Positions 18,297 to 60,488 of a DNA stretch of 64,000 nucleotides are shown piece after piece. Under the pieces are notes generated by a model. The model made no database searches. It was not told where the DNA came from and was given only the letters and a program-made list of their open reading frames with translations. The position numbers and the translations under genes were made by a program. Each line of letters begins with the position of its first letter. Position 1 is the first letter of the stretch. The DNA is from a virus (lineage: Duplodnaviria > Heunggongvirae > Uroviricota > Caudoviricetes), in the IMG/VR virus record IMGVR_UViG_3300032018_000003; one strand, given 5' to 3'.

Positions 18297-18334
18297 GTGT
18301 ATATGAATAGTATAGTGGTATAGACATTAGTATA

Positions 18335-25828: not shown

Positions 25829-26059
25829 AATAAACCTTTATACTATTGGTGTTTATATAAGTTACGTTTCTAATTTTTATTCTCTAACAAAATCCACATG
25901 GTCCACCATTCGTACAATTTGAATAATATTGTTGACAACCTAATGCCTGGTTTATACTATATTGAATTATAAAATGTGCTATTACGTTTATCAAAATAAC
26001 AATACCTATAAGAAGACAAAAATATAATAATGTTACTTTTAAGTCTTTATTCATAATTA

Positions 26060-27385
26060 TCAATATTCAAATATGTTTTTCTTAATCTGTGGTTTAATAA
26101 AATAACTTAACTCACTCCACACTCCACTCATATCAATATCCGATATTGTAAAGTTACGGTCTTTAAATTCATCTAATGTACATAGTTTTATACTATTACC
26201 GACGCCCACACCTCTAGTGTTGGGGATAAGAAAGTGTATTCCTGGACCATATTTTTTAGTTATCTGCGCCTGAATTCCACCTAAAGAATTCGAATAATGT
26301 TCTATTTTCTTTACACTTTTTCTCATACACATAAGAGTTGTGTCTTTTTCTAATAGTTCTAATATAATGTTTTTTAAATAAGTTTTACTAAATTTAACTA
26401 TTCCCTTTTCTACTATTTGAGGTACTAAGTAATCCCAAAAAAGTTTTCTAGATAAAGGAGATGTTGATTTTTTTCTTATACCGAGATTTTTTATGACTAA
26501 AGCGTCTTTGGGGTCTTTAAAAATTCCTTTTTTTACATATATATAATTTTTTTGAAGAAGTCCAAACTCATGTTTATTTTTCTGGTCATCTTCGTCTAAA
26601 TCAAATTCGATTTTATTTTTTTTGTTGTCTCCTTTAAAGAAAAACAAATGTTTAATTTCACACTCTAATTCAAAATCAAATGTTGTTTGAGGAAACGGAA
26701 CTGTACTTTTAATATAGTCTATAATTTGTTGTTTGACTTTTAACAATCTTTCAGTGTCCATATAATAATCTAGTATGTATAACGAATCTGTATCAGTATA
26801 TGCAACATCATAACCATTCTCTTTAAACACTTGTCTTGCGTATTTTACCCATTGTTCCCCTAATGAAGTACAATCCTGTGCTGCAGTCATATCATATAAT
26901 AATATAAATGCAGGGTTGTCAGAAACTCCGAAGCTCGTATTTAAGCATATCTTAAACGTGTATTCAAGCGGGTCTACTTTTTTACTTAGTTCTAAATATT
27001 CCTTTACTAACTCTTCTGTTAATACTATTTCTTTTAATTCTAAATCTTTAACGTCTTTTAAATTAATTGTATATATAACTTTACCAATATATTTATCTGC
27101 CTTTTTCATACTAACTACTTTCTTTTCTTCTACTAATACAAATTTTCGTTTATAATAATTTCTTTGATAAAACCATTTACGTTGTAGTTTAGCAACTATA
27201 CCCATTTCATCAGTATAATAAACGCCGCTAACTTTCCATACCCCTCCACCATTCCATGTGGGTCTATTATTAAAATCAAACTCTTTCTTTCTATTTAATA
27301 ATGCGGCTTGAATATATACGTGTGGATATAGAGAAGTATAATCTAATAATATTATATTATATTTTGATTTGTCTATAGTTTCCAT
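26060..27385 (-). CDS. polB: family B DNA polymerase, polymerase-domain fragment (441 aa)
   Basis: Motif A LLDYTSLYPH and motif C YTDTDS are present. It begins immediately after the point where the exonuclease-fragment ORF ends. Confidence 0.85.
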   Translation of the reverse strand: METIDKSKYNIILLDYTSLYPHVYIQAALLNRKKEFDFNNRPTWNGGGVWKVSGVYYTDEMGIVAKLQRKWFYQRNYYKRKFVLVEEKKVVSMKKADKYIGKVIYTINLKDVKDLELKEIVLTEELVKEYLELSKKVDPLEYTFKICLNTSFGVSDNPAFILLYDMTAAQDCTSLGEQWVKYARQVFKENGYDVAYTDTDSLYILDYYMDTERLLKVKQQIIDYIKSTVPFPQTTFDFELECEIKHLFFFKGDNKKNKIEFDLDEDDQKNKHEFGLLQKNYIYVKKGIFKDPKDALVIKNLGIRKKSTSPLSRKLFWDYLVPQIVEKGIVKFSKTYLKNIILELLEKDTTLMCMRKSVKKIEHYSNSLGGIQAQITKKYGPGIHFLIPNTRGVGVGNSIKLCTLDEFKDRNFTISDIDMSGVWSELSYFIKPQIKKNIFEY

Positions 27386-27389
27386 TTTA

Positions 27390-27752
27390 TTACCAACATC
27401 TCATTATAGGATAATACATTATTTTATTAGTAATCAACATAGAGTTTTCATACCACGTCATATTTCTTTTTCCTATATATTCTATTTTTATAAAAGAACA
27501 ATCTAATTTAACATTAAATTTATAAGTATCATTAAAAACACAATAACCATCATTCTCATAATATACTGTTGTGTTTTCGTTCATGTCGTGCATAAAATTA
27601 CAAAGAGTGTCGTTTTTATAAACTAACACGCTGTTTGCTCCAACAAACATTCCATATGATGTACCCATATTATAAATTATTAAAAACAATATAATCATTA
27701 ACAACCAAAACAATATAGTCTTTATTTTATTTATTTTAATCTGTTGTAACAT
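27390..27752 (-). CDS. small type-II membrane Cys protein inserted between polB fragments (120 aa)
   Basis: MLQQIKINK start plus a transmembrane segment. It is a paralog of 27736..28029. Confidence 0.45.
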   Translation of the reverse strand: MLQQIKINKIKTILFWLLMIILFLIIYNMGTSYGMFVGANSVLVYKNDTLCNFMHDMNENTTVYYENDGYCVFNDTYKFNVKLDCSFIKIEYIGKRNMTWYENSMLITNKIMYYPIMRCW

Positions 27753-28029
27753 TATTAACCTCTAAATATTCTTTTGCTTTATTAAAATTATATTTATTAG
27801 AATAACTATATTCACCTTCTATAGATATATTTACACACGTAAAACTATCATAAAGAATAACATCGTTTGTTTTATAATTATAATAACCTTTATAATTACA
27901 AAAATCTTCTGCGGTTGTTAAATCTTCATATATTGACATCCCCATTAAAATAGGTCCACCAACTATACACATTGAAATTATTAATGTAAAATAATCTATT
28001 TCTCCTTTTTTATTTTTAATCTGTTGCAT
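27736..28029 (-). CDS. small type-II membrane Cys protein inserted between polB fragments (97 aa)
   Basis: MQQIKNKKGE start plus a transmembrane segment. It is a paralog of 27390..27752. Confidence 0.45.
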   Translation of the reverse strand: MQQIKNKKGEIDYFTLIISMCIVGGPILMGMSIYEDLTTAEDFCNYKGYYNYKTNDVILYDSFTCVNISIEGEYSYSNKYNFNKAKEYLEVNNVTTD

Positions 28030-28783
28030 GGAACTCTTCCCCGGTAGGATAACTTACATACCCACCACTAATTTTCTCTTCACTCTCATCTTCACCACTA
28101 TCTCCAAATTTATCAGGATACTTTGGTGTCCATCCTAATGAATAACAAATAACTTTATATACAAAACTTGCTGCACTTGCAGTCAAATAAGTTTTTCTAT
28201 TAATATCATCTTCAGGTACGAAATTTTTAAACACACTAAAATAATCTTCAATAAACTCATACAATTTTTTAGTTACTTCTATATCTCTATTAAGATACTC
28301 GCGCATTGTTTTAAGTTCTTCGTTGGTCCATTGTTTTTTATTAAACAAATTCTTATCAACATGTATCTTAGAACTTTCTTCATCTACTAAATGTAATGTC
28401 TTAGTAATATAATCCAAACTAAATTCCATTAGGAGGTCTTTTAACATACCATCTTTAACTTTCATAATTATTGCTCTGTCAACAATTACGTTTCTTAAAT
28501 CAACATATACTTTATTATAAAATTTAATCCCGTGTCGTTTAAGAACATTATTATCATAACCAGGATTATCTTTCTTACCTTCAATATTGAACCCCACGAT
28601 TACTCTGTGCGCATTAATAACCTTTTGTACCTCTGACAAATCTGTTAATATATATGGTTTCCCTGTCTTATAACTATAACAACCAAACAATCGGAACTCA
28701 TCGTTCTCTGCATCGGGCATTCCCTTAGTCGGTGTATATGTTTCAATGTCATATACTAAAACGTCTTTGTCAATGTCTACCAT
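28016..28783 (-). CDS. polB: family B DNA polymerase, 3'-5' exonuclease-domain fragment (255 aa)
   Basis: Exo I YDIETY, Exo II GFNIE..YDNNVL and Exo III YLNRD are present. It ends with the pre-motif-A sequence GGYVSYPTGE. Confidence 0.8.
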   Translation of the reverse strand: MVDIDKDVLVYDIETYTPTKGMPDAENDEFRLFGCYSYKTGKPYILTDLSEVQKVINAHRVIVGFNIEGKKDNPGYDNNVLKRHGIKFYNKVYVDLRNVIVDRAIIMKVKDGMLKDLLMEFSLDYITKTLHLVDEESSKIHVDKNLFNKKQWTNEELKTMREYLNRDIEVTKKLYEFIEDYFSVFKNFVPEDDINRKTYLTASAASFVYKVICYSLGWTPKYPDKFGDSGEDESEEKISGGYVSYPTGEEFHATD

Positions 28784-31275: not shown

Positions 31276-31490
31276 ACATACACCTACCACATTTTATATT
31301 TATATAGTTGTTGTTTCTAACTCCTATTCAAAGTCTTTGTTACTACAACCAGTATGATATTCAAGTTGTTTGTTCCATTGTACTGTAGCGGTTTGTTTTT
31401 TAATACCAAGTTTTTCACATTCTTTAATAAACAATTCTTTGGTGTTTACTTTATTATATATCGCTTCATAATTTGTTTTTACCATTCGAT

Positions 31491-35903: not shown

Positions 35904-35977
35904 AAAGATATTAATCTTTATTATTTAAATAACACTATACCATTTATATAATGTAACTTGTTTATATAGTTTGTGTT

Positions 35978-36536
35978 TCTAAAAAAACTTCTTTATAATA
36001 AAAATTTAGATATAATCTAATTACATAAGTTTTTTTAGAAAATATATATTACATAAGTTTTTTTTCTGTTTTTATAACTATTTATTATAATGTTAAGATT
36101 TTTTAAAAATAGTACTTTTTTGTAGTAACACAATAAATTAACATTTTTTTTGACATTATATATGTTTTCAAAAATATATATTGCGGTATATAATTCCCTA
36201 GGTTTTAGTGTTTTTTTGGTGTTTTTTACCCTTTTTTCTAAAAAAACTTATGTAACGAAAACAGATTTATGTAATGAGGGTATTGTAAAATGCTAGTATA
36301 ACCCATATATCATAGAAAAAAAAATATTACATACGTTACATACGACATTTCGAAAATTGGTATACAAAATATTTCTAAAAAAACTTTATAACCTATTTTT
36401 GTGTATTACCTAAATAGTAGTAAAAACATTAAGCGCGTTGTTAAAAATAATTTTTTTTATATACGAAATGGTATATACGAAAATTATAATATAAAATTCA
36501 TACTGAAGTTGAAAACGCTTATGTAACGTATGTAAT
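35978..36536. promoter_or_regulatory. strand-switch intergenic region with repeated TTACATAAG/CTTATGTAA and TCTAAAAAAACTT motifs
   Basis: TTACATAAG at 36021 and 36049. Its reverse complement at 36248, 36267 (variant) and 36518. TCTAAAAAAACTT at 35978, 36238 and 36374. Confidence 0.45.
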
Positions 36537-36595
36537 TTTCGAATAGTATATTAGAAAAGGTAATTATATAAATACCATTTACTATATTTAACATA

Positions 36596-42003: not shown

Positions 42004-42322
42004 ACTATATAAATATAAATATTATTCTATATTATATGTTATATAAAGTGTTAAGAAATCTTCTATTTTTGATAGTATTGGGGTATATTACATTGAGTAC
42101 TATTCAAACTTTAATAGTAGCCATTCATAAAGAACAAATATGTACTGTTGCGAATCCAACGGGAGAAATTTCTAAAGGATATGTTTCTGCACTAAAGACA
42201 TACCAACCGTTACACAACACAACTTGGGTAGATAAAAATATATTACAACGCGGAATACAGTTTGAAGTTTGGAGAAATAGTTTACCTATAAGTTGGACTT
42301 TTTGGATGAAGTGTTAAGAAAC

Positions 42323-42340
42323 ACAAACTATATAAATACC
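42323..42340 (+). promoter_or_regulatory. plus-arm promoter motif copy ACAAACTATATAAATACC
   Basis: Lies 55 bp upstream of 42395. Confidence 0.4.
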
Positions 42341-43045: not shown

Positions 43046-43387
43046 ATGGAAAAAATAATTTGGAACAATAAAATAATAAAAGCAGATTTTAAAAAAGGAG
43101 ATAGAATTAAAGTTATTAATACTTTATTAATGTGTGGGCAATATTATAATTATGCAAGAATTTTTATGAAATATAATATTATGTTAGAAGTTAAAAAAAT
43201 TCATAAATGTACACATTGTAATAAAAAAACAAAACCGTTTTTCACGTATGGATGTAGTATAATAAAAAAAGATAATGATAAATTAATAAAAACATTGGAA
43301 AAAGTAAAAAAACCAGACGATGTTTTAATATTTGATTATGCAACATTATTATATTATTATAGATGTAATGATATAAAAAAGGTATGA
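43046..43387 (+). CDS. hypothetical protein with CTHCNKK motif (113 aa)
   Basis: ORF from track. Confidence 0.3.
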   Translation: MEKIIWNNKIIKADFKKGDRIKVINTLLMCGQYYNYARIFMKYNIMLEVKKIHKCTHCNKKTKPFFTYGCSIIKKDNDKLIKTLEKVKKPDDVLIFDYATLLYYYRCNDIKKV

Positions 43388-45561
43388 AAATGATAAGAAG
43401 TTCATTTTCCCAAACTAATATGTTTAGTCACTACCCTCGTCAATGGTATTTTAAGTATGTATTAAAGATTAAGGAAGTATCAGATTTTTCTTACGCGAAT
43501 GGTGGTACAGCCGTACACAAAACCGTTGAACAATTATTATTAAAAAACATAACTGAAATTGAAGCATTAAAAGAATTCTTTAATAACCAATGGGATAGTT
43601 TTAATTTAAGTAGTTCTATAATAAAACATATGAAAGACAAATATTGGTTAATGGTACTTAATGCAAGAGAACGAAATATTGAATGTACCGATATAGAAAG
43701 TGAAATAAATTTTCCTGATGTTCGTATGTTTTTAGATATATTAAATAAAAACACTTGGGAAATTAGAGATTTAAAGACGAGTAAACGTGATGATAAACAC
43801 GATAAAGAATATACCGATCAAACATTACTATACGCGTGGGGAATATTGCGACAATATAATGTACTCCCGAGAAAACTAACTGTCGATTATTTACAATATT
43901 CCGGTAGTAAAGGTATATTAGAAATTGTACCAACACAACAAGACATTGATAGAATTTCTAAATGGTATAACGATTGTGGATCAGAAATGGAAGCGTTATC
44001 TAATTTAAAGATTTGTCCAGCTAAATGTAAAGAATGTAACCCGTGGTGTAGTTTTACAAAAGAATGTGCTGCAGAAGAGAATGAATTTACTGTTAAATTA
44101 AATATATGGAACAGTTTAATATTTATTAATTGCGAGTTTAATGATATAATAAATAAACAATTACATAAGAAATTTAGTTATGTTCAAACCAAAGACGCAT
44201 ATATGAATAAGAAATGGAACAAACAAAACCCCACTATAGATTTTTATAATGAAACTAAACATAGTTTACCATTAGGGTTTAAGACACAACTAATAAAAAC
44301 GTTTACTGATTATTGTGAATGGAAGAAATGTAAACTAAATTTAATTATTAATGATACACGCCAGTTTAATGAAGCTAAAATAATAATGCCAGAAAAATTC
44401 TTGAACGGAAATGAGTTAAGATACTATCAAAAGGATGCAGTTAAAGTAGTATTAGATAATAAAATTGTTTCAATACAGTCCGCAACCGGAAGTGGTAAAA
44501 CAGAGATGTCAATAGATGTTATTAGACAATTAGGATATAAAACATTGTTTATTGTCGATAGAAAAGAATTAATGAAACAAACAATAGAACGAATAGAAAA
44601 ATGTTTAGGTGTAGAGGTTGGTAAGTTAGGTGAAGGGGAACGAGATTTAAAACATATTACTGTTGGTATGATACAAACAATTAATAGTAACATAAACAAT
44701 AACGATCAAGAAATTATAGATTATTTGAAAACAATTAGGTTTACTATATTTGATGAAGCTCATAAATGCGCAGCAGATTCTTTTATTACATTAAATAAGT
44801 GTCTTAATAATTCTGAATATAAACTTCTTATGTCGGGAACTTTAAGACGTAATGATGGAGAAGATATGAAATTATATTCTATTGGTGGTGAAATTAAATA
44901 TACCAAACAAGCAAAAGAATTAATAAACGAAGATATCCTTATGAATCCTAAAGTTTATTTTATTAAAGATTATATGACACGCGAACAAGAACACGAAATA
45001 AGACTATCGTGTAGTACAGGATTAATTAACGCGGAAGACCAATATCCTATTTTTTATGATAAGTTTATCGTTACAAATAGTTTAAGAAACGAATTAATAA
45101 AACAAGTAGTAGATGTAGTTAGTAAAAACAACAAGAAAGTTTTAATATTAGTTAAGTTGATAGAACATGGAAAAATATTAGAACAGTTAATTCCTAATAG
45201 TAAATATTTGTATGGCGAAACACCAAAAAAGGAACGGGAAGAAATATTTAACGATTTTTCTCATGGTAATCTTAATGTAATGATTTCTATGGTAACGATG
45301 ATGAGTGAAGGATTAGATTGGCCGTCACTTGAACTTTTTTTGATGGCGAGTGGTATAAAAACAGATAATAAAATAATACAAGGCATTGGCAGAATATTAC
45401 GTAAATGTAAAAATAAAGAACAACCAAAATATATTGATTTTATGGATTATGGTGGTATGATTAGGAATGCCAGCGTGTGTAGACGTCGTGCATTAAGACG
45501 TGAAGGATATTATATTAACGAAGTTACATTAGACGAGTTCATAGAAACACAAACTATATAA
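43384..45561 (+). CDS. Cas4-like RecB-family nuclease fused to SF2 DEAH helicase (725 aa)
   Basis: N-terminal nuclease motifs and the Cys cluster CPAKCKECNPWCSFTKEC. C-terminal helicase motif I SATGSGKT, motif II FDEAH and motif VI-like QGIGRILR. Confidence 0.6.
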   Translation: MKMIRSSFSQTNMFSHYPRQWYFKYVLKIKEVSDFSYANGGTAVHKTVEQLLLKNITEIEALKEFFNNQWDSFNLSSSIIKHMKDKYWLMVLNARERNIECTDIESEINFPDVRMFLDILNKNTWEIRDLKTSKRDDKHDKEYTDQTLLYAWGILRQYNVLPRKLTVDYLQYSGSKGILEIVPTQQDIDRISKWYNDCGSEMEALSNLKICPAKCKECNPWCSFTKECAAEENEFTVKLNIWNSLIFINCEFNDIINKQLHKKFSYVQTKDAYMNKKWNKQNPTIDFYNETKHSLPLGFKTQLIKTFTDYCEWKKCKLNLIINDTRQFNEAKIIMPEKFLNGNELRYYQKDAVKVVLDNKIVSIQSATGSGKTEMSIDVIRQLGYKTLFIVDRKELMKQTIERIEKCLGVEVGKLGEGERDLKHITVGMIQTINSNINNNDQEIIDYLKTIRFTIFDEAHKCAADSFITLNKCLNNSEYKLLMSGTLRRNDGEDMKLYSIGGEIKYTKQAKELINEDILMNPKVYFIKDYMTREQEHEIRLSCSTGLINAEDQYPIFYDKFIVTNSLRNELIKQVVDVVSKNNKKVLILVKLIEHGKILEQLIPNSKYLYGETPKKEREEIFNDFSHGNLNVMISMVTMMSEGLDWPSLELFLMASGIKTDNKIIQGIGRILRKCKNKEQPKYIDFMDYGGMIRNASVCRRRALRREGYYINEVTLDEFIETQTI

Positions 45562-45570
45562 ATATAAAAC
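45549..45570 (+). promoter_or_regulatory. plus-arm promoter motif copy ACAAACTATATAAATATAAAAC
   Basis: Lies upstream of 45585. Confidence 0.35.
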
Positions 45571-45775
45571 GGTGTAATAACAATATGGAAATTAAAACTA
45601 AAAATCAAATATGTGAAACTTTTCATTGTCTTGGTGCAGCATTATCACCAACGCTTAGAAGAGATTTGGGTATATCACAAATAGAGTGGATGGAAATAAA
45701 AACTTATAGGGGAAAAGAGGAAACCTTTTCTATAGTAAAAGGAATGGGCAATAAAATACCGGGAGATGAATTAAA

Positions 45776-46480
45776 ATGAAGATTGACAAAACAGAGATAG
45801 TAAACTTTTTTAAGAAAATTAGAATGGATAAAGACGAAAAGATTGAAGAAGCAAAATTTAACTTTGATACTAATGGACTTAAAGTATTAGCAACGTCTAA
45901 TACTAAATCAACACAAGTGAGTGCATTATTAAAACCTGCTGCATTTAAAGAATATGAAAAAATTGGTGTAGTAGCAATAAACGATCTTACTAATGTTCAA
46001 GGAGTATTTGATAGATTTAAAGGAGTTATTACAATTAAAAAAAGTGGTAATTGTATGATAGTGAATGGGGACAACAAAAAAGTTGATATTGAATTGGTAA
46101 GCGAACAGTTTCTTGTAAATGAAAAAGAACCCCAAGGATTAGTTTTTGAGAACGAAATTATTATTGATAGTACAACATTAAAAGAAATTGTTGCAGACAT
46201 TGAACTTAATAAAGAAGCAGAATTAATTGTTACTACAGGAGATAAGGTAGTTAAATTTAGTAATACCGGAAAATATAAATTTGAGACTACACTTGAAGCA
46301 CCATTATGTAAAGTAGGAACTGTAGTAAAATTCGGTCAAGCATTTATTGATGCAACAAAAAATCTTAATGGTATGTTGAAACTACATGTAGGAACAAATT
46401 ATCCATGTAAGATTGTTGAAGAGTCTGATATAAGTACAATAAGTATAATTATTGCACCGCGTATAGCCGACTCAGAGTGA
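45776..46480 (+). CDS. candidate sliding clamp (PCNA-like), weak (234 aa)
   Basis: The size and alternating hydrophobic pattern fit PCNA, and it lies directly upstream of the RFC-like gene. No strict motif was seen. Confidence 0.35.
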   Translation: MKIDKTEIVNFFKKIRMDKDEKIEEAKFNFDTNGLKVLATSNTKSTQVSALLKPAAFKEYEKIGVVAINDLTNVQGVFDRFKGVITIKKSGNCMIVNGDNKKVDIELVSEQFLVNEKEPQGLVFENEIIIDSTTLKEIVADIELNKEAELIVTTGDKVVKFSNTGKYKFETTLEAPLCKVGTVVKFGQAFIDATKNLNGMLKLHVGTNYPCKIVEESDISTISIIIAPRIADSE

Positions 46481-46518
46481 ATTTTTTATTTTTTATAATA
46501 TGATAAGGAGATACAAAA

Positions 46519-46794
46519 ATGTCAACAAGTAATATATTATTTTGGTGCGCAATAGGTATTGCAGTATTAGGCTTAATTTATGTTGGTACGATTGAAACGA
46601 TAGGTACAAAAAATATAGATTGTTATGATGAACATAACCAAAAAATACTTGACCACGTGTGTGAAGAGAAACAAGCAATAAATATATTTGGAATGACTGG
46701 TTCGGAAAAAGAACTTTGTTCGTATTCAGTAATTGATATATTACTTATATTTATATTGTTTGCTGGTAGTATATTAACTATACGAATGTATTAA
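46519..46794 (+). CDS. small membrane protein (91 aa)
   Basis: AAGGAGA SD upstream and two transmembrane segments. Confidence 0.35.
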   Translation: MSTSNILFWCAIGIAVLGLIYVGTIETIGTKNIDCYDEHNQKILDHVCEEKQAINIFGMTGSEKELCSYSVIDILLIFILFAGSILTIRMY

Positions 46795-46816
46795 AAAAAT
46801 ATAATGAGGAACACAA

Positions 46817-47713
46817 ATGACATTCAACCCTAAAGATATTGTTTGGACCGAGAAATATAGACCCAAATTAGTAAACGAAATTGTTGGAGATTTTAAAGAT
46901 AAGATAAAAGAGTATCTTAAAAATTCTGATAACATGCCACATTTTTTATTTTACTCACGTACTCCTGGAACCGGGAAAACAACAATTGTAAAAGCAATCA
47001 TTAATGAACTTGGTTGTGATAGTATAACAATAAACAGTTCCGATGATAGAGGTATAGAAGCAATAAGAGAAAAGGTTAAAGAGTTTGCTAAATCTAAAAG
47101 TAGTAATGGTAATAGGCGTTGTGTATTCTTAGACGAAATTGATGGTGCGACTCGTCCTGCACAAGATGCTCTTCGTAATATAATGGAGACATACGCAAGT
47201 AACGCATTTTTTTGCCTCACATGTAATAATATAAATAAGGTTTCGGATGCGATACAATCACGTTGTGTATGTATAAATTTCGCATACCCAAATAGAGACG
47301 AGATAAAAAAATATCTTGAAATGATATGTGAAAAAGAAAATTTAAATTATACTGATGAAGGACTTGATGAAATATTAAAATATAATTATCCTAGTATAAG
47401 AAATTGTGTTATATGTTTACAAGACTTGAAAACCGAAAGTAAAGATATAACAAAAGAAAATATTAAACCTATTAATAGTATGTTTGAAGAAATGTGGCAG
47501 AAAATAAAAAACAAAGAGTGGAAGGATATTAAAATTATTATAATGGAGAGTACACTTGACGCGAGAGAACTTAATACTTATTTTTGGGAGAAAGCATTAG
47601 AAGAAGAAAATATTAAAATTATTCAAACATGTTGTAGAAATGAAAAGGATATTAGTACTGGTGCAGATGCTAATATTATAGTAGTAACAAGTTTAATTGA
47701 GATGGTAAAATGA
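46817..47713 (+). CDS. rfc: replication factor C small-subunit-like clamp loader (298 aa)
   Basis: WTEKYRP box, P-loop RTPGTGKTT, Walker B FLDEIDG and SRC motif QSRCV. Confidence 0.8.
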   Translation: MTFNPKDIVWTEKYRPKLVNEIVGDFKDKIKEYLKNSDNMPHFLFYSRTPGTGKTTIVKAIINELGCDSITINSSDDRGIEAIREKVKEFAKSKSSNGNRRCVFLDEIDGATRPAQDALRNIMETYASNAFFCLTCNNINKVSDAIQSRCVCINFAYPNRDEIKKYLEMICEKENLNYTDEGLDEILKYNYPSIRNCVICLQDLKTESKDITKENIKPINSMFEEMWQKIKNKEWKDIKIIIMESTLDARELNTYFWEKALEEENIKIIQTCCRNEKDISTGADANIIVVTSLIEMVK

Positions 47714-48078
47714 CAACATTAAAAGAAGAATTAATTAAAAAACTTAATGAATCAGATTCTCATAAACATTTAGAAAAATTTACTATTGAGAAAGAAATAA
47801 TAGAGGCGTATAGAAAAATTAACAGTAATAAAAAAGATAACGAAAAACTCAAATTGTTAAAAATGTATGAAGAAGGATTTAAAGACGCAGTAATGTTTTG
47901 TTTAGACAAGAAAGAATGTGGACTTGATAGAAGTAATAACGACATGTATATTAAATTATTACAAAGGTTGTCTCCTTTTATACGAGACGAATTGACTTTT
48001 GGTGATGCTTTTGAAGTTATTCAAGTATGTGAGAAAAAAACAAGCGATATTATAGTTGAAAAAATTAATAATATGTGA
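47710..48078 (+). CDS. hypothetical protein (122 aa)
   Basis: ORF from track. Overlaps rfc by ATGA. Confidence 0.3.
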   Translation: MTTLKEELIKKLNESDSHKHLEKFTIEKEIIEAYRKINSNKKDNEKLKLLKMYEEGFKDAVMFCLDKKECGLDRSNNDMYIKLLQRLSPFIRDELTFGDAFEVIQVCEKKTSDIIVEKINNM

Positions 48079-48090
48079 TGGTGAAATAAA

Positions 48091-48417
48091 ATGGACGATG
48101 CAAGTTTAAAACGAGATCATGATGAGTTAATGGAATCTTTAGATAAAAAAATAAAAGGAACCGAATTAGAAAAACAAATGTTTAAAAATGGTACTAACTA
48201 TGGAATACAAATCGGAGCCTTATTAGTTTATGATAGGTTATTAAAATTACATTCGAGTAAAACGTTTTCTAAAAATTTTATTGAAGATTTGGAAAAATGT
48301 AAAAGTATAACAGACAAAGAAGAAAAACTTAAATCACTATTTAAAGAGTTACATAAAGTATTTATTGGTACTGCAGTGAAATATACAGGAAAACCTATTA
48401 TTGGCGCAGAGTGGTGA
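48091..48417 (+). CDS. hypothetical protein (108 aa)
   Basis: ORF from track. Confidence 0.3.
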   Translation: MDDASLKRDHDELMESLDKKIKGTELEKQMFKNGTNYGIQIGALLVYDRLLKLHSSKTFSKNFIEDLEKCKSITDKEEKLKSLFKELHKVFIGTAVKYTGKPIIGAEW

Positions 48418-48423
48418 AATAGA

Positions 48424-48696
48424 ATGGATGATGAATTAAAAGGAATTGTTATTATATTTTGTCTTATTATTGGTGCATGTACTATATTTTTTACAATATT
48501 TCAAATTAATGAAAATGATAAAACAGAAATGTTTAAATGTTTAGAAGTATGTAATGATAAAACAGAGACACCTAATATGATACAATGTCAAAAAGGTTGT
48601 GAATTATTACGAAATGAAATTAATATGACAAGTGACGCTAATAATACTTATATACATGGATATTTTACAAACGAATTTATTAAGGAGATAAAATAA
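48424..48696 (+). CDS. small membrane Cys protein (90 aa)
   Basis: One transmembrane segment plus 4 Cys. Confidence 0.3.
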   Translation: MDDELKGIVIIFCLIIGACTIFFTIFQINENDKTEMFKCLEVCNDKTETPNMIQCQKGCELLRNEINMTSDANNTYIHGYFTNEFIKEIK

Positions 48697-48804: not shown

Positions 48805-49323
48805 ATGGACATATTTTACGTAATAAACAATTTATATACAAATAAGAAATCTCAATGGATCATAGAATTAGATGATAAAGAATTACAAGAGAATAAAATA
48901 GAACCTTTTATGATACAACGTTTTTTGTCTATGAATGATGAAGTAAGACAACTAACGCGATGGTTGGATAAATACACGTTTACTATATCACCAAAGATGT
49001 ATATAAGTTTAGCATGGAGCGTATTACCTAAATATCAAAAACCTCCTTATGTTCCGTACATTAAGATAAAAACAAAAGAGGACGAGTATTGTTTCATTTT
49101 GCCAAAGATAAGACAACATTTACAATTAAGTCATAACGATTATAACGCATTGAAAAGCAGATTAATAAAAAACATTGAGACAGATAAATTTAATTGGTTT
49201 GCATTTTATGGTGTGCCAAAGAGCTATTATAAATTTTATAATTTAAATTTTGAAAATGTTAAAACCTTTGGCGAGACAGAAAAGAAACCTGTAGAAGTGG
49301 GTTTAAGTAAATGGGGATTATAA
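48805..49323 (+). CDS. hypothetical protein (172 aa)
   Basis: ORF from track. Confidence 0.3.
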   Translation: MDIFYVINNLYTNKKSQWIIELDDKELQENKIEPFMIQRFLSMNDEVRQLTRWLDKYTFTISPKMYISLAWSVLPKYQKPPYVPYIKIKTKEDEYCFILPKIRQHLQLSHNDYNALKSRLIKNIETDKFNWFAFYGVPKSYYKFYNLNFENVKTFGETEKKPVEVGLSKWGL

Positions 49324-49881
49324 ATGTTAATTAAACAAATGTATAACGGTTTTACTGGTTTAATAGATGTTGGTAGAAATGTTTTGTTTGTGGAGTTATC
49401 TAACGCAGGAACATTTATAGATAACGATAAAATATTAGATAAATGTTTAATGGAAAATTATATTGTATTTATTGATAACGATAATTTTAATCAAAAAGAA
49501 GATATTATAAAAATAATTAAAACAATTAATAAAAGAAACAATCAGATTAAAATTTGGATCTATTGTACACCAATTAATAAATTAGCAAGTAAATTGGAAA
49601 ATGTTAATTATATTGTTATGTGCGATGGTAATACAAACTATGATAAAGTTAAAGATGTTATTATAGAACATTATGTTTCATATAATAGTTTGTTTGTATT
49701 TAATGTAGCAACACAGTTAGACATAGAAAGCGTATATAAAATAGTTAATTTGTTTTTAATACCAAAGAAATTAGTTTATCTTACTACAGATACAGATAAT
49801 TTTAAAATGTTACAGGATAGTGCAATGTTAAACAAATACAATTTTTGTTTAGATTTTAAGAAAATGTTGTGGGACGAATGA
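49324..49881 (+). CDS. hypothetical protein (185 aa)
   Basis: ORF from track. Confidence 0.3.
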   Translation: MLIKQMYNGFTGLIDVGRNVLFVELSNAGTFIDNDKILDKCLMENYIVFIDNDNFNQKEDIIKIIKTINKRNNQIKIWIYCTPINKLASKLENVNYIVMCDGNTNYDKVKDVIIEHYVSYNSLFVFNVATQLDIESVYKIVNLFLIPKKLVYLTTDTDNFKMLQDSAMLNKYNFCLDFKKMLWDE

Positions 49882-50228
49882 AACAGATATACAGTTATAA
49901 CGTCATAGAAATATTACATGTTCATAAAGTAAATGAAGTCACTGAAGATATTATATTTTTTAAGAATAGACATAAACATATATTAAACATTAAAACTACT
50001 ATGTCGTTAGATGATGAAGAAATCTTAGATATGTATCTATTTAGAAAATATATAGAACAGATATTAAGCGCACTTAGTTTTGATATTAAAGATAAAACCT
50101 ATGATATGTTAGCAACATATATTAAGAATAAGATAACCGAACAGTTTACAAATCACGATATAGAAATAGATATAAGAGAAGATAATGTTACAGGAATAGT
50201 TTTTAAGTTCGACGAGCTAGAAACGTAA
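49869..50228 (+). CDS. hypothetical acidic protein (119 aa)
   Basis: ORF from track. Confidence 0.3.
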   Translation: MGRMKQIYSYNVIEILHVHKVNEVTEDIIFFKNRHKHILNIKTTMSLDDEEILDMYLFRKYIEQILSALSFDIKDKTYDMLATYIKNKITEQFTNHDIEIDIREDNVTGIVFKFDELET

Positions 50229-50242
50229 CCTATATAAATACC
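50227..50242 (+). promoter_or_regulatory. plus-arm promoter motif copy AACCTATATAAATACC
   Basis: Lies upstream of 50261. Confidence 0.4.
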
Positions 50243-50260
50243 ATATAATATATACTATAT

Positions 50261-51750: not shown

Positions 51751-52302
51751 ATGAATATAGAATATTCATTAAAGATGCCAAAGGGTTGGCATAAAAGTAC
51801 AGAACAAGAAAGGTTTTATAGTTGGAGTAATATTAAAATTTCTTTAACTCATTTTGAAAATATAATGAAACTATTATCAGCCAAAGATATAGTTCTTACA
51901 TCGAACAATAACGATTCTGCAGTGTCTGTTTTTTTTACATTATATACAAAACGATTATGTTTATATTTAGATAAATGGGATCGTAGAGAAGATAATATAA
52001 CTGCTATTAGTATGTTCTTAGAAAATCTAATAAAAAGTAAAAAATATGTTGGGGACAACATTGTACTTTATTGTCTTTCTAATTTAAAAGAAAATCCCAC
52101 AACATTAACTTCTATAGTAACTAATATTAAAAAACCATTGTGGTGTAATATATTAGAAGTTGAAGAAACGTGTACTAAGGAAGAAGTTAAAACACAATAC
52201 CATAAATTATGTAAAATAATGCACCCGGACAATGGTGGTAGCGCAGACGAGTTTATATTACTTAAACAGGCGTACGATGAAGGAATGTTGAATGCAAAAT
52301 GA
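51751..52302 (+). CDS. J-domain (DnaJ-like) protein, J domain at the C-terminus (183 aa)
   Basis: EEVKTQYHKLCKIMHPDNGGSADEFILLKQAYD matches helix II, the HPD tripeptide and helix III. Confidence 0.55.
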   Translation: MNIEYSLKMPKGWHKSTEQERFYSWSNIKISLTHFENIMKLLSAKDIVLTSNNNDSAVSVFFTLYTKRLCLYLDKWDRREDNITAISMFLENLIKSKKYVGDNIVLYCLSNLKENPTTLTSIVTNIKKPLWCNILEVEETCTKEEVKTQYHKLCKIMHPDNGGSADEFILLKQAYDEGMLNAK

Positions 52303-53578
52303 AATTTCTTTTGGTATTAAAACAGACGAAGTAAAAGAAACTTTTTTTGATGAGACATTAATAGAAAATAAAAATTCAGTTGAGTTACATAATTGGCAAC
52401 GAGAGGGAATTAAATATTTCTTTAGTAATGGTGGTAAAGCAATATTTAACTGTCCTACGGGAGTTGGAAAAACGTTTTTTGCTATAGAATTATTAAAAGA
52501 AATATTGAAACGAGAACCGGAACTTAGAATTCTTATTGTTGTACCAAAAAATGTTATTATGGAAACGGGTTGGTATCAAGAATTGTATAACAATGGTTTT
52601 GGATTACAAGACATTGGTATTTTTTATGGTAATATAAAAGAAATATGTAAGATTACTATTACAAACATGCAGAGTATAGATAAAATACCATTAGAAATAT
52701 TTAGTGTAATCGTTCTTGATGAAGCACATTCGTACGGGACGACTAAAAATTTAATTTGGGTCGAACACGACTTTAAATATAAAATAGGTTTATCCGCAAC
52801 AATTGAACGTACTGATGGTAAACATTGGGATATAATTAAGGCACATAATTATAATGTTTTTAAATATACACCGAAAGAAGCATTAAAAGACGGAATTCTT
52901 AATACTTTTTATTATTATGATATTGGTGTAGAGATGGATGACAACACCAAACAAGATTATGATAACCTTTCTCAAGAAATTTATATGATGTACCAGATGC
53001 ACGGAAACTATAACATCATAATGCGACGTAAAGATGGTATCACAAACGCACTATTAAGTAAACTAACAAAACGAAAACAAATGGTTAATAACTATAATAG
53101 AAAGTTTGAAGTTATACGAACTATATGTGATAAGCATAAGAACAATAAGATAATTGTATTTTCACAGTTTAATGATCAAACCAATAAGTTATATTGGGAA
53201 TTATTAGAGATTGGTGTCAAAGCAGTAATAATACATTCCGGGGTAGATAAAGAAGAAGTTGATAGGATAATGATGGGGTTAAAAAAACAAGACACTTTCT
53301 GTATTTTAACCACCAAGAAGCTAGATGAAGGTTGGAACCTACCAAAGCTAGACGTTGCAATAATAACAGCAGGTGATAGCTCTGATAGGCAGACAATACA
53401 ACGAATGGGTAGGGTATTACGAAAAAAAGAAAAAGCTAGTGTGTTATATCAAACTTATTGTCTTGATACTATTGAAGAAACGGATGCCATACAACGTGCA
53501 AAAACATTTAAAGAACTTTGTGTAGATTACAAAGAATATGTTTTTTATAATAATGATAACACATTTGTATTAGATTGA
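52292..53578 (+). CDS. SF2 DEAH-box helicase (428 aa)
   Basis: Motif I NCPTGVGKTF, motif II VLDEAH, motif III SAT and motif VI QRMGRVLR. Confidence 0.7.
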   Translation: MQNEISFGIKTDEVKETFFDETLIENKNSVELHNWQREGIKYFFSNGGKAIFNCPTGVGKTFFAIELLKEILKREPELRILIVVPKNVIMETGWYQELYNNGFGLQDIGIFYGNIKEICKITITNMQSIDKIPLEIFSVIVLDEAHSYGTTKNLIWVEHDFKYKIGLSATIERTDGKHWDIIKAHNYNVFKYTPKEALKDGILNTFYYYDIGVEMDDNTKQDYDNLSQEIYMMYQMHGNYNIIMRRKDGITNALLSKLTKRKQMVNNYNRKFEVIRTICDKHKNNKIIVFSQFNDQTNKLYWELLEIGVKAVIIHSGVDKEEVDRIMMGLKKQDTFCILTTKKLDEGWNLPKLDVAIITAGDSSDRQTIQRMGRVLRKKEKASVLYQTYCLDTIEETDAIQRAKTFKELCVDYKEYVFYNNDNTFVLD

Positions 53579-56766: not shown

Positions 56767-56784
56767 CAAATATATATATAAACA
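56767..56784 (+). promoter_or_regulatory. plus-arm promoter motif copy ACAAATATATATATAAAC
   Basis: Lies upstream of 56806. Confidence 0.35.
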
Positions 56785-56805
56785 AGCAATTATATTATAG
56801 TTATT

Positions 56806-59800
56806 ATGGCGTCAACTTCTTCAACAAGTTCAATGAGCACTAACCCAAACAAGGTTAGTTATACTGGATTGGGGTTAAGTGGTGGCAGTTCACCAGTACC
56901 ATCAAGTTCATCTTCTTCTGGCGGTGGTAGTTCTTCATCAGTAAATCCAGGTTCTCTTAATGTTGGTAGTAAATATACAGGCCCACAAAGCAGTAGTTCT
57001 TCAACGCCATCAAGCGGGGCATCAGGTAGTTCTTCTTCAACAAGCGGGTCATCAAGTGGTTCCACTAGTGGTTCAACATCAAGACATTCACATTCAGGCG
57101 GTGGCGGAAGTTCTTCTCCAGCACCAGAAGTTAATGTGTTTGGCGTATCAACACCCGTACAATCATTAGAAGTTGCTTCTAAAGTAGATACTAATATGTT
57201 TGGTATGCAAACATTACAACAAAGTAATGTTCCATCTTCAGCTAAACAAGATACTAATATGTTTGGATTACCACAACTGCAACAGAGCAGTGGTAGCGCA
57301 AACGTTAATATTGACAGGCCTGCAAACTGGGTAAGTAATGAACAGAATACTCCAACAACAGATTGGGGTAATATAGGACTAGGCGAACAACAGCTCATAA
57401 AAAATAATCCTGGTGGATATGTCACTTTTGGTAGTAAAGTAATGCCAAACAAATTCATAACTTCTGGTGAAGGTAGCGGGTATGGTGGAACACAATCTGC
57501 GGAATTTAATGAAACTACCGGTAAATTTGAGATTACTACTAATATAAACTCTCTTGGCGGATTTGCTAAAACTGATATTAAACCAACAACCATTTCGTTA
57601 TCTAAATCAGAGTTTGCTACACAGTATCCAGATATGAGTAAACAGTTTAGTTTAAATAGAGAAAGACTTGCCTCTGATTTTGTACCACAATATTTGAACA
57701 TTGGTTCTAGTTTAGGGTCTCCAGATATGTCTAGTTCTATGAACAAAATATATGGAAAAGTTATGTCTAATATACCACAGTATGCTGAAATTGGTAAAAC
57801 GTTTAATACACAAAATAAAATTAATCAAATATTAGGTACAAATACACCAAATTTACCACAACAATCAAAAACTTTTCAATACGCCCAGAATTTTTTATAT
57901 TCTCCTACTACTGGTAGAGATATTATAACAACAGAACGAAGCGTTATTCCTAGTGAGTATATGAATTTTGGTAGAAGTTTAGGAAATCAGTATTCGCCAT
58001 TACCAAAAGCAAGTCCGTTTGCTCCAATTATAGATATATCTAAATTTAATACGGGTGTTATAAAAGAATTAAATTTAAAAGAACCTTTTATTCCAACGTC
58101 TATTGGTAATATGGGAACACAAGAAAAAGTACAAAACGCACCGTATGTTGATATAACACCAAGAAAAGATACTTCGTTACCACCTTCTGTTTTTGGTGCT
58201 AGTAGTAATAAAGCAGAAAACAAATTTTTAGATTATGTGTATAAAAATTTCGAAATTACAAAAGATGAAAAAAATAGTACTATATATAAAACAAAAAATG
58301 ATATTTCTATAGAAGACGCAAACAAAAAAATAGAAATTGCGAATGCGTTACAACAACAAGCGATTGCAGAAGCCAAAACCGCCCAATTACCAGATAGTTT
58401 TATTGCGTTGCGACAAAAACAAATGAATGTCTTGGATATGGAAAAAACATTTTCTAAAGATTCGTATTCCTTTTCTCCAGACAACTTTCAACAAGCATTG
58501 ACATATCAAGGAGTTAAAAGTATAGGGCAACCAGGAGTATTAAATAAATTATATGGTGGTATATCTTTAGCTACCAATTTAGGAGTAGAATATGTTAAAT
58601 GGGAAGGAATTGGTGCGGTTGCTGGCGCAGGATTAGGATTAGCATCAACAGGAATTGGTAAAGTTGCATCGTTATCAACAAAACCAAGCAATATTCTTGT
58701 AAGAATAAACCCACTATTATCAAAAAGTTCTAATATAATTTCAGTATCTAAACCAATAACAACAAGTACTGGTTTTTTTGGAAATGTAGCAAAACCAATT
58801 TTAAATACCGGTAAAGAAATAGGAAAAGAAACAATCAGTATTTTAGGCAGCACTCCAGGAGTAATAGGATTATCGACAGTATATGGAACATATGAAGGAG
58901 TTAAAAAAGATAGTGTTATTGAAGGAGTAATGGCGGGAGCGACTTTTGGTACGAGCGCATTTGGTTTTGAAAAAGGGTTTGGAGCAATATCAAGTTATAA
59001 AAATATAGAAACTCCATTTTTAGAAAATAAACAGATTTTTACTTCTGAAGTTAAAGGTTCACGACAAATAGAAACTACACCGTTTGAAAGAGGATATAAA
59101 AGCAAAGAAACTTTTAAAGGTACTGGTAAAACTGGAGATTTATTATATACTGGTTATACGACAGTACCAAATTTAAGAACTGGTACAGGAACTATAGAAT
59201 ATGGAATCACAAATTTAAAAAATAAAAATATAGTATTCTCAGGAACGGGAACAATAGATTTATTTAAATCAAAAACATTATCTAGTTCTACACGTGGGGA
59301 AACAACAATTTCAAAAATAGAAACGGAAACAATTTCTAGATTAAATAAAGAAAAAATTCCTACAATAGAAAAAACCACAATAATGAGAATTGGAAATACA
59401 AACACGCCGAATTTTTATAATGAACTTATTTCAAAGGATACTACAACGCCTACAATGAATATATTAGAACAATTTTCTCAAAAAGCGTCTGTATCAAGAT
59501 ATCCTTCAGGAGCAATTAAAACAAATTTATTTCCACAAGGAACTATAGAAACAACAAGTAAAATACTTCCAACAAAAATGGTATTAGGAAATTACAATAC
59601 TTATGTTATTAAACCAACAGTAAGTAAAGTATTTGATGCAGGATTAGACTTAGGTACAAAAATTAAAAGTACTAGTAATATGTTTAAAGGTAAAAAAGCG
59701 ACGGCTGAGGTTGGGTTTGGTAATTTTGGCAATACTTATGGTTCAATGCCAAGACCTGGAGAATTGTTTGGTGAATCAGGATTGATAAAACCTATGGAAT

Positions 59801-60447: not shown

Positions 60448-60469
60448 AACAATATATATATAAATACCC
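60448..60469 (+). promoter_or_regulatory. plus-arm promoter motif copy AACAATATATATATAAATACCC
   Basis: Lies upstream of 60489. Confidence 0.4.
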
Positions 60470-60488
60470 ATAGACACACTTATATGAT

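Follow-up and report, generated by a model that had tools for sequence, protein, structure and literature searches.

A probable viral DNA processivity module that combines a PCNA-type sliding clamp with a gp44/gp62-type clamp loader

An uncultivated, AT-rich virus-like replicon of ~97 kb (28% GC), without a close cultured relative, encodes a sliding clamp that aligns to PCNA, a clamp-loader ATPase related to gp44 of phage T4, and a small helical protein homologous to T4 gp62. We interpret the region between 45.5 and 49.3 kb of the window (the whole stretch of 64,000 nucleotides that was analysed) as the processivity module of a virus-encoded family B DNA polymerase (PolB) replisome, comprising a PCNA-type clamp and a gp44/gp62-type loader, with a probability of roughly 0.8. 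It is well known that viruses encode clamps and loaders of their own, and the function of the module is therefore unsurprising: it is a viral replication module of an ordinary kind, whose combination of parts takes a middle place between what is known from archaea and from T4. In earlier surveys viral clamps were divided into PCNA, β and gp45 groups, to each of which a loader of its own type belonged, and gp44/gp62 loaders were found only alongside gp45-like bacteriophage clamps (PMC3201878, PMC4889955). New with respect to these surveys is the occurrence of a gp44/gp62-type loader together with a PCNA-alignable clamp and with a gp62-like protein that ends in a PIP-like tail. The features discussed below are collected in Table 1.

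Table 1. Positions in the window of the processivity module, its flanking elements and the presumed polymerase client
Feature	Position	Strand	Remarks
Split family B DNA polymerase, presumed clamp client	26060..28783	-	exonuclease part 28016-28783, polymerase part 26060-27385
Promoter-like element TAGAAACACAAACTATATAAATA (BRE-like stretch and TATA box)	45542..45564	+	function inferred from sequence
ORF, first gene of the unit	45585..45779	+	64 aa; stop overlaps the clamp start (ATGA)
PCNA-type sliding clamp subunit, presumed homotrimeric ring	45776..46480	+	234 aa, pI 5.5, C-terminus IIAPRIADSE
Oligo-T element ATTTTTTATTTTTTATAA, no hairpin, possible terminator or attenuator	46481..46498	+	right after the clamp stop; function inferred
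Predicted membrane ORF between clamp and loader	46519..46794	+	91 aa; hydrophobic N- and C-terminal segments
gp44/RFC-small-subunit-type AAA+ clamp-loader ATPase	46817..47713	+	298 aa; from motifs, PHROG_168 and solved structures
Three small ORFs between ATPase and gp62-like gene	47710..48696	+	122, 108 and 90 aa
gp62-like fifth clamp-loader subunit	48805..49323	+	172 aa, pI 9.2, all-helical, collar-type, no AAA+ module

The clamp and ATPase genes lie on the plus strand exactly where the original prediction, made from the sequence alone, had placed them, and its suggestion that the former encodes a PCNA-like sliding clamp was borne out when the fold was checked against PCNA. The protein exhibits the fold of PCNA processivity factors, two repeated β-α-β-β-β domains with an interdomain connecting loop, so a fold other than that of a clamp can be set aside, and the profile of its family matches P. 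furiosus PCNA over the full length (E 4e-9). The single sequence matches the NCBIfam archaeal clamp NF002222 with E 9e-9 and 35.2 bits against a cut-off of 207, and Pfam PCNA_N with 13.6 bits against a cut-off of 20.3; judging by these comparisons it is a PCNA homolog, yet one below the curated membership thresholds. The family is acidic (pI ~5.3) and carries the C-terminal APR(V/I)E of PCNA; acidic pI has been used as a criterion for ring-forming clamps that operate with loaders (PMC3201878), and a closed homotrimeric ring is presumed here by analogy. The window clamp does not match the profile of the gp45 family (PHROG_223), its hhalign similarity to gp45 is marginal (E 7.5e-4, probability 25%), and tblastn against 50,697 phage records returned no match for it; divergent relatives of the clamp match gp45 profiles too.

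The ATPase has all the motifs by which an RFC-type clamp loader had been recognized in it: W10-TEKYRP16 (RFC box II), the P-loop P50-GTGKTT56, Walker B D106-EID109 and S148-RC150, to which sensor 1, sensor 2 (R195), the lid and the collar can be added. Among 29 family members K54, E107, S148 and R149 are invariant, while D106, D109 and C150 are conserved in at least 90%. It matches PHROG_168 ("clamp loader") at 5e-61 over residues 1-296, Pfam AAA at 3.9e-17 and DNA_pol3_delta2 at 2.1e-9, and among solved structures the archaeal RFC small subunit (RFC-S) 1iqp at 1.9e-42, yeast RFC4 at 6e-36 and T4 gp44 at 5e-30; the alignment with both gp44 and RFC-S continues through the collar. The nearest cellular RFC found by tblastn against genomes is archaeal (~40% identity over the AAA+ module), whereas identity to gp44 is 25-30%, and none of the 185,579 species-representative genomes searched by tblastn contains a close copy. 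The details of the alignment nevertheless side with the phage protein: two indels are common to the ATPase and gp44, namely 5 residues missing after ELGCD and 1 residue inserted ahead of the P-loop. The xWRxN insertion that follows the P-loop helix in archaeal RFC-S is absent from it, as from gp44. Its match to NCBIfam RFC-S (NF001679; 3e-56) reaches 190.8 bits and stays below the cut-off of 303. In a neighbour-joining tree, calculated from capped distances after bacterial outliers and two partial sequences had been dropped, and comprising neither eukaryotic RFC nor full-length euryarchaeal RFC-S, it groups with moderate support (72% bootstrap) with viral loaders, including bacteriophage gp44s, and outside the sampled archaeal RFC-S. 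The expected archaeo-eukaryotic affinity of the module stands, and a place among cellular RFC-S does not; the original interpretation is partly supported.

The module does not end with the ATPase gene at 47713, as had been supposed, and continues to 49323. Besides the ATPase gene, tblastn detected no other RFC-like gene in the window, and the third component of the module is the gp62-like protein. Among 48,164 chains, T4 gp62 is its top structural match, and hhalign of its family against gp62 relatives gives a probability of 99.7% (E 1.9e-25), with a target alignment (A6) that includes metagenomic sequences retrieved by the query family's own profile; these sequences are independently recognized by a T4-like gp62 HMM. 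In many IMG/VR loci, and in 39 library representatives, the family HMM and the T4-like gp62 HMM pick out identical ORFs, and three family members match PHROG_225, the T4 gp62 family. A comparison of the family alignment profile with solved structures produced only noise, and hhalign of the family against T4 gp62 alone was negative; the homology is visible only via structure and intermediate sequences. Like members of PHROG_225, the protein is small and all-helical, has a collar homologous to that of gp62 and is encoded near the ATPase gene. Neither a P-loop nor an AAA+ match was found in it with Pfam, PHROG and NCBIfam, so it does not have the AAA+ module plus collar of an RFC large subunit (RFC-L). 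The loader is of the viral gp44 plus gp62 type without RFC-L, and not the cellular set of RFC-S, RFC-L and PCNA. The gp62-like ORF had been overlooked in the original prediction.

The gp62-like protein terminates in VEVGLSKWGL, which resembles a PIP box but does not have the Q of the motif Qxx[LIM]xx[FYW][FYWL]. Of the 110 full-length representatives of the family, 49 have the consensus [QK]xGL[DE]xW[F/GL]-COOH, and a [QK]xGLxxW[F/GL] tail is absent from the four T4-type gp62 sequences examined. Archaeal RFC-L has a PIP-like tail at its C-terminus, and we take the tail of the 172-aa protein to resemble also the PIP motifs of archaeal PolB and FEN-1. The peptide EKKPVEVGLSKWGL and the PolB tail are candidate clamp-binding peptides.

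The order clamp-ATPase-gp62-like corresponds to that of T4 genes 45-44-62, and a clamp, an ATPase and a small subunit follow each other in this order also in Vibrio, Acinetobacter and Salmonella phages. All related metagenomic loci examined carry the trio together, and the same order is found in L001, L018/L024, L019/L023, L020, L025 and L026. It speaks against the proposed module that in the window the three genes are split up by small, non-conserved ORFs. The clamp and the ATPase had been described as direct neighbours, but the 91-aa membrane ORF sits between them; it matches no Pfam or PHROG family, lies outside the conserved module and is absent from the relatives, whose clamp and loader genes either adjoin each other or have other, unrelated small ORFs between them. 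The 122-, 108- and 90-aa ORFs and the 64-aa ORF likewise have no Pfam or PHROG match, and no tblastn match was found for the former three in related loci or for the latter in five of them.

In front of the 64-aa ORF, TATATAAA occupies positions -30 to -23 relative to the ATG at 45585, and the TATA box contains the codon at which the helicase gene upstream stops. The exact CTATATAAATA occurs five times, always between genes and co-oriented with them, TATATAAA is located at -30 to -32 of the ATG in eight genes, mostly without a Shine-Dalgarno (SD) site, and TAGAAACnnAAC-TATATAAATA stands at a fixed -30 before SD-less ATGs. SD sites of the GGAGG/GGTGA type precede 52 of 67 genes. The related loci did not show the exact spacing of TATATAAA and contained only looser TATA-like motifs. 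The 18-mer ATTTTTTATTTTTTATAA recurs after the gene at 7995-8753 on the minus strand, and runs of five or more T are found in 13 of 44 post-gene gaps, compared with 8% of genic windows. Scans for sigma-70-like promoters and for intrinsic terminators gave results at or below chance, with no enrichment of the former and none of the latter on the plus strand.

Of the replication genes that had been listed together with the loader, a split PolB, a D5-like primase-helicase and two SF2 helicases are present. The exonuclease part of PolB has a DIET motif, the polymerase part has DYTSLYP and YTDTDS and ends in KKNIFEY, and the gap between them holds two small membrane ORFs; the matches are weak to Pfam DNA_pol_B, 8e-8 to NCBIfam Pol II and 1.6e-5 (BLASTP) to T4 gp43. 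The primase-helicase is a PrimPol-D5_N-SF3 fusion. The element is largely self-sufficient for replication, in support of the original prediction on this point. Comparison of the 708-aa, 1211-aa and 376-aa proteins with solved structures gave no informative match, and neither tRNA genes nor matches to Rfam families were found in the DNA. When proteins of the window were looked up by exact sequence, no record turned up.

If the solved complexes of T4 and RFC are taken as models, the parts would work together as follows. The clamp would form a homotrimeric ring, four subunits of the loader would be provided by the ATPase, and the gp62-like collar protein, without an ATPase module, would take the fifth ("A") position. 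The ATP-bound 4:1 pentamer would bind and open the clamp, with the [QK]xGLxxW tail of the gp62-like subunit docked in the hydrophobic pocket of the clamp in the manner of archaeal PIP boxes. The complex would then recognize the primer-template junctions that the PrimPol-D5 primase-helicase produces, and ATP hydrolysis via the SRC arginine fingers would close and release the clamp, which would tether the split PolB, probably through the C-terminal tail of the polymerase. The genes may be co-transcribed, starting from a promoter at 45554, and part of the transcripts may already end behind the clamp gene.

With the T4 system (gp45 clamp and gp44/gp62 loader, structure 3u5z; PHROG_223, _168 and _225) the module shares the gene order, an ATPase with a full-length match to PHROG_168 and with the indels of gp44, and a small subunit homologous by fold and profile, without an AAA+ module in either case. 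It differs in the clamp, which is PCNA-like by sequence and only marginally gp45-like, in the tail of the gp62-like protein (n=4 for T4-type gp62), and in the primase-helicase, which is of the D5/SF3 type where T4 has gp41/gp61. A T4-like genome was rejected, as BLASTP of the ORFs from T4 1-50 kb against the window detects only gp44 (1e-32) and gp43 out of the replication core that T4-like phages share (gp41, gp61, gp43, uvsX, gp46/47, gp55 and others), and PHROG scans of 19 window ORFs, including 8 of the 10 longest, revealed no T4-type structural families. With the archaeal PCNA-RFC system it shares the PCNA fold, an acidic and presumably ring-forming clamp with its C-terminal motif, and RFC box II, P-loop, DExD and SRC in an AAA+ module, but not RFC-L, and its fifth subunit is without an ATPase module. 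Magroviruses (Aoguangviridae), uncultivated viruses of Poseidoniales with genomes of 90-100 kb and ~31% GC, have divergent replication and morphogenesis blocks, and their genes include PCNA, a loader of the RFC type and a PolB that is split in some of them; the papers that describe them do not mention a gp62-like subunit (PMC5434244, PMC10768690). A magrovirus identity, suggested by size, GC content, split PolB and the RFC and PCNA pair, was dropped: by published description magroviruses possess an MCM helicase and a separate archaeo-eukaryotic primase, whereas the window has the PrimPol-D5_N-SF3 fusion, and no MCM helicase was found in it. Sphingomonas phage PAU, a non-T4-like phage with a T4-like clamp and a gp44/gp62 loader (PMC4889955), is by description a precedent both for such a module outside T4-like genomes and for a cryptic clamp found because a loader was present; its clamp, however, is gp45-like and its host bacterial.

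It is improbable that the genes are cellular-type archaeal RFC-S and PCNA, captured recently, with the viral RFC-S assembling with the RFC-L of the host. Archaeal RFC-S does head the matches among solved structures and in NCBIfam and is the closest cellular sequence by tblastn, and the profile of the clamp finds PCNA from both archaea and eukaryotes, with the C-terminal motif retained; yet both proteins score far under the NCBIfam cut-offs for the cellular families, the loader has its indels in common with gp44 and clusters with viral loaders, no close copy exists among the species representatives, and a dedicated fifth subunit is encoded and conserved, so host RFC-L is not needed. Still less credit, and very little, is given to the 234-aa protein being a repair clamp like 9-1-1/Rad1 or acting chiefly as a transcriptional co-activator, as T4 gp45 does at late promoters; it may act in transcription in addition to replication.

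Which host carries the gp44/gp62-type module together with its PCNA-type clamp is a separate question. The original prediction argued for an archaeal host from the replisome parts, and this inference is unsafe, since bacteriophages carry such modules routinely and the type of module does not identify the host; the grammar of promoters and terminators makes the same host plausible, and we lean slightly towards an archaeal rather than a bacterial one. BRE/TATA-like promoters at -30 of SD-less starts, oligo-T without hairpins after genes, the lack of enrichment of sigma-70-like sites, the archaeal origin of the nearest cellular RFC and a relative from a Loki's Castle sediment metagenome point in this direction. 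A carrier that infects a low-GC bacterium as a phage, a very divergent T4-type relative in which the "archaeal" features are an AT-rich coincidence or belong to a virus-specific transcription system, is a serious alternative, if somewhat short of even odds. It agrees with the gene order 45-44-62 and with the presence of a gp62-like subunit, with strong use of GGAGG-type SD sites at 28% GC, with a CoiA-like nuclease and a P4-family primase domain in the window and a DnaB-like helicase in the relative L025, and with matches in a phage collection (n=2,686), all to named bacteriophages among the matches listed. An RNA polymerase encoded by the virus could just as well be the user of the conserved 22-nt promoter, and TATAAATA is the T4 late-promoter consensus as well. 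Earlier reports of gp44/gp62 loaders, confined to bacteriophages (PMC3201878, PMC4889955), also count against an archaeal host. A phage of this kind is harder to reconcile with the lack of any further gene of the first 50 kb of T4 by BLASTP, with a clamp that matches PCNA by sequence but gp45 only weakly, and with TATA boxes at -30 with no intervening SD site and neither sigma-70 nor intrinsic-terminator signals. The PIP-like tail, with its resemblance to archaeal PolB and FEN-1 motifs, also fits it poorly.

Two consequences concern annotation: uncultivated viruses annotated with "RFC only" may have a small fifth subunit that was overlooked, and a replisome of the RFC/PCNA type should not by itself decide the assignment of an archaeal host. 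As the clamp aligns to PCNA and its divergent relatives match gp45 profiles, the PCNA and gp45 groups, formerly connected by structure only, become linked by sequence, and because the family bridges them, ideas on how the minimal T4 loader originated can be tested by phylogeny and biochemistry. It is a tentative and rather doubtful proposal that the lineage is an evolutionary intermediate between the archaeal PCNA/RFC and the T4 gp45/gp44/gp62 systems, in which the large subunit may have shrunk to a gp62-like collar protein while the archaeal-style PIP box was kept and the clamp stayed recognizable as PCNA. Should the host be archaeal, the minimal T4-type loader would not be an invention of bacteriophages and would be common to viruses of both prokaryotic domains, and this would give a clue to the origin of the T4 module.

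The ORF upstream of the loader genes, originally put forward as a PCNA-like candidate, encodes a DNA clamp that is closer to PCNA than to gp45, the clamp of phage T4. As a single sequence it gave only borderline matches to Rad1 and PCNA_N in Pfam, scored 9e-9 against the archaeal sliding-clamp model of NCBIfam, and matched no PHROG family and nothing in 50,697 phage records; its 33 homologs are all metagenomic. The profile of this family was aligned end to end with the PCNA of P. furiosus (4e-9), and the following 59 among the matches listed were likewise PCNAs. AlphaFold2 predicts, with very high confidence (pLDDT 95, pTM 0.90), a structure with the double β-α-β-β-β repeat, for which Foldseek returned the A. 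fulgidus PCNA as the top match (E 2.8e-14, TM 0.86); thus, in tests for another fold, profile, model and structural search all led to a DNA clamp. The family is acidic (pI ~5.3) and ends with (I/V)APR(V/I)E(D/E), resembling the ...LLAPRVEE terminus of P. furiosus PCNA. Its match to gp45 is marginal (hhalign E 7.5e-4). Because divergent members match both types of profiles, namely the clamps from the related loci L025 (6e-38 with the window-family HMM, 3.4e-7 with the gp45 profile) and L019 (2.6e-7 with PHROG_223, i.e. gp45, and also the window-family HMM), the family can be regarded as intermediate in sequence between gp45 and PCNA.

The loader ATPase possesses the RFC-type motifs ascribed to it in the original prediction, WTEKYRP (10-16), PGTGKTT (50-56), DEID (106-109) and SRC (148-150), and its catalytic residues are invariant or nearly so in 29 family members. 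It matches PHROG_168, the family of the T4 loader ATPase gp44, over its whole length (5e-61), and among the solved structures archaeal RFC-S (1.9e-42), yeast RFC4 (6e-36) and T4 gp44 (5e-30). The NCBIfam archaeal RFC-S model detects it with E 3e-56, at 190.8 bits, far below the curated cut-off of 303; sequence identity is ~40% to archaeal RFC-S in the AAA+ module and, along the entire protein, ~30% to gp44 of phages. Two indels in the alignment are common to the window family and gp44 and not to archaeal RFC-S: the xWRxN segment that follows ELGCD is missing, and there is one extra residue ahead of the P-loop. A neighbour-joining tree (43 sequences, 200 bootstraps, rooted on archaeal RFC-L), which is distance-based, moderately supported and calculated without eukaryotic RFCs or full-length euryarchaeal RFC-S, sets the viral loaders, without exception, apart from the archaeal RFC-S sampled (72% bootstrap). 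The window family (73%), with an IMG/VR contig as its sister, falls outside the clade of T4-like, Ackermannviridae, cyanophage and marine IMG/VR loaders (74%). The claim of an archaeo-eukaryotic-type clamp loader therefore holds as regards the RFC-type ATPase, while the position on the viral side of the tree and the gp44 indels speak for a gp44-type loader rather than a cellular archaeal RFC-S.

The original prediction overlooked a 172-aa protein related to gp62, the small loader subunit of T4. It matches PHROG_225 weakly (2.6e-4), as do two further members of its family; from the match of T4 gp62 to it (1.2e-58), PHROG_225 can be identified as the gp62 family. We found 23 close homologs of the 172-aa protein, as well as 174 clusters in a library of 1.84 billion proteins. 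Of the family's top 150 library matches, 39 are recognized by a small HMM of T4-type gp62 proteins, which in many IMG/VR loci also hits the same ORFs as the window-family HMM. The family profile matches an alignment headed by T4 gp62 with a probability of 99.7% (E 1.9e-25, 148 columns); T4 gp62 as a single sequence is undetectable from the family, therefore the link is transitive. The protein lacks the ATPase module, and a tblastn search of the window for a further RFC-like gene found none. The family terminates with [QK]xGL[DE]xW[F/GL]-COOH (e.g. KKGLDMWF, VGLDAWF, SGLELWGL; VEVGLSKWGL in the window copy), a tail which may be a counterpart of the PIP boxes at the C-termini of archaeal PolB and FEN-1. 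The 172-aa ORF is the sole one in the window with a [QK]xGLxxW-type motif at the extreme C-terminus, and the tail is missing from the four T4-type gp62 proteins examined. At the other end, MDIFYV... (48805-48816) is comparable with MDIFELL in gp62 of Vibrio phage F86 and MSLFKDD in T4 gp62, the loci compared with the window being L103 (2961-2975) and L022 (gp62 start); M-x-[IL]-F may be a conserved N-terminal motif of gp62-like subunits.

The order clamp, ATPase, gp62-like subunit is kept in all related loci examined (L001, L018/L024, L019/L023, L020/L021, L025 and L026), with the small ORFs that separate the three window genes missing or different. It is also the 45-44-62 order of T4 and of Vibrio, Acinetobacter and Salmonella phages, and in cyanophages it is interrupted by unrelated genes, as in the window. 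No close relative was found in cultured phages or in 185,579 species-representative genomes; the relatives are metagenomic. Their contigs reach 183 kb, and one derives from SDBV01, an assembly of deep-sea sediment from Loki's Castle. A T4-like genome was ruled out as the carrier, since BLASTP with the genes of the first 50 kb of T4 matched only gp44 and gp43 (PolB). In L025, a 109-kb IMG/VR contig whose loader ATPase is 41% identical to that of the window, a DnaB-like SF4 helicase (16836-18296, 3e-29) takes the place of a primase-helicase of the D5 type, so that the clamp/loader module is combined with differing helicase systems. Just downstream of the module, L001 (12736-20816) and L020 (13452-18664) carry 7-deazaguanine-type genes (QueD-like PTPS, GTP cyclohydrolase GCHY-1, a radical SAM enzyme and a weak TGT match), which suggests DNA modification. 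The window ORF 49324-49881 is homologous to a gene of this block; PTPS and GCHY-1 are absent from the scanned window ORFs.

The window has a GC content of 28% and short, tightly packed genes. A minus-strand block reaches to ~36 kb and a plus-strand block, which includes the clamp and loader genes, begins at ~36.6 kb; the sign of the GC skew switches at the same place. The ~700-bp non-coding stretch between the diverging blocks (35904-36595) is a candidate replication origin. Here TTACATAAGTTTTTTTAGAAA units are repeated in either orientation, among them a perfect inverted pair of 22 nt (36021-36042 / 36234-36255), and TTTCTAAAAAAACTT is present in three exact copies. Another non-coding, repeat-dense region of 1.36 kb (16973-18334) includes tandem pairs of 83 nt (18135-18300) and 54 nt (17454-17561) and, in an unusually GC-rich patch (17764-17932), AAAGGGGGTACGT three times with inverted copies. 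PolB is split just upstream of motif A (26060-28783, -), with two small hydrophobic ORFs (27390-27752 and 27736-28029) between the halves; in the related locus L023 the ORF preceding the polymerase part has an intein-splicing domain. No tRNA genes, Rfam families or genes for capsid, portal or terminase were found in the window, and 33 kb of the contig, whose reported length is 97 kb, lie outside it. The ORF 61125-64000 (+), which runs off the window end (>958 aa), has a hydrophobic, signal-like stretch at the N-terminus and contains a concanavalin-A-like lectin domain (Laminin_G_3, 2.4e-17); its product may be located at the surface or bind a receptor. For the 1211-aa ORF ahead of it (56806-60441), no search gave a match.

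Features of the clamp/loader module and other annotated elements of the window
Feature	Position	Strand	Basis
PCNA-type sliding clamp, 234 aa	45776-46480	+	family profile, structure model
Loader ATPase, 298 aa	46817-47713	+	RFC/gp44 motifs and profile matches
gp62-like loader subunit, 172 aa	48805-49323	+	PHROG_225, profile-profile match
PD-(D/E)XK + SF2 helicase	43384-45561	+	
Second SF2 helicase	52292-53578	+	
PrimPol-D5_N-SF3 primase-helicase	32979-35681	-	
Split family B polymerase, exonuclease ORF	28016-28783	-	
Split family B polymerase, polymerase ORF	26060-27385	-	
Acylphosphatase-domain protein	12753-13439		
SPFH/Band-7 protein	24174-25148		
DNA methyltransferase	29933-31138		PHROG_116, 1.4e-86
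CoiA-like nuclease	32120-32968		
DnaJ-domain protein	51751-52302		
TAGAAACnnAAC-TATATAAATA element, first five sites	25829-25860, 31276-31307, 36564-36595, 42005-42035, 42328-42338		
TAGAAACnnAAC-TATATAAATA element, other four sites	45542-45584, 50219-50260, 56775-56805, 60456-60488		

Archaeal genes typically have BRE/TATA elements at -26/-27, with the first gene leaderless and Shine-Dalgarno sites on internal genes. In the window, eight genes are preceded by a recurring promoter-like element with a BRE-like and a TATA-like part, TAGAAACnnAAC-TATATAAATA. The distance from the start of TATATAAA to the ATG is fixed at -30 to -32; a Shine-Dalgarno site is missing from most of these genes, whereas overall 52 of the 67 genes have sites of the GGAGG/GAGGTGA type. 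This spacing and distribution match the archaeal pattern and lean towards an archaeal host. At three sites the upstream gene has its stop codon within or right beside the TATA box. Oligo-T tracts without a hairpin stand behind 13 of 44 genes, compared to 8% of genic windows, and look like archaeal-type terminators; ATTTTTTATTTTTTATAA, an 18-mer immediately behind the clamp gene (46481-46498, +), has an identical copy downstream of the gene 7995-8753 (-). Further tracts directly behind stop codons are found after 38154, 38509, 42988, 14912 and 16972. In the window, neither sigma-70-like sites nor intrinsic terminators exceed chance.

On the other hand, the conserved 22-nt promoter could serve a virus-encoded polymerase, TATAAATA is also the core of T4 late promoters, and the exact TAGAAACnnAAC-TATATAAATA spacing rule was not recovered in relatives, all of which count against an archaeal host. 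So does the DnaB-like helicase of L025, whose own host may be bacterial, and so does the fact that gp62-type loaders are so far known only in phages (PMC3201878). Weighing promoters and terminators against these points, we consider an archaeal host slightly better than an even bet. The original observation of a clamp loader accompanied by a PCNA-like clamp is confirmed, and its interpretation is supported in part; the argument for an archaeal host from the replisome parts does not hold, because archaeo-eukaryotic-type replication parts are widely carried by phages, so that the replisome type cannot decide the host (PMC4889955).

If the assembly resembles the T4 and RFC complexes of solved structure, the ATPase would contribute four subunits and the gp62-like protein one to a pentamer that opens the trimeric clamp, with the gp62-like tail docked in the clamp pocket. 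The clamp would be loaded at primer-template junctions, released upon ATP hydrolysis, and would then tether the split PolB. Putative promoters at 45554 and 50230 would bracket the module, and the T-tract behind the clamp gene could yield the clamp in excess of the loader. The function of the module is ordinary; the combination of a PCNA-type clamp with a gp44/gp62-type loader bearing a PIP-like tail is a new variation in architecture, which links two known systems.
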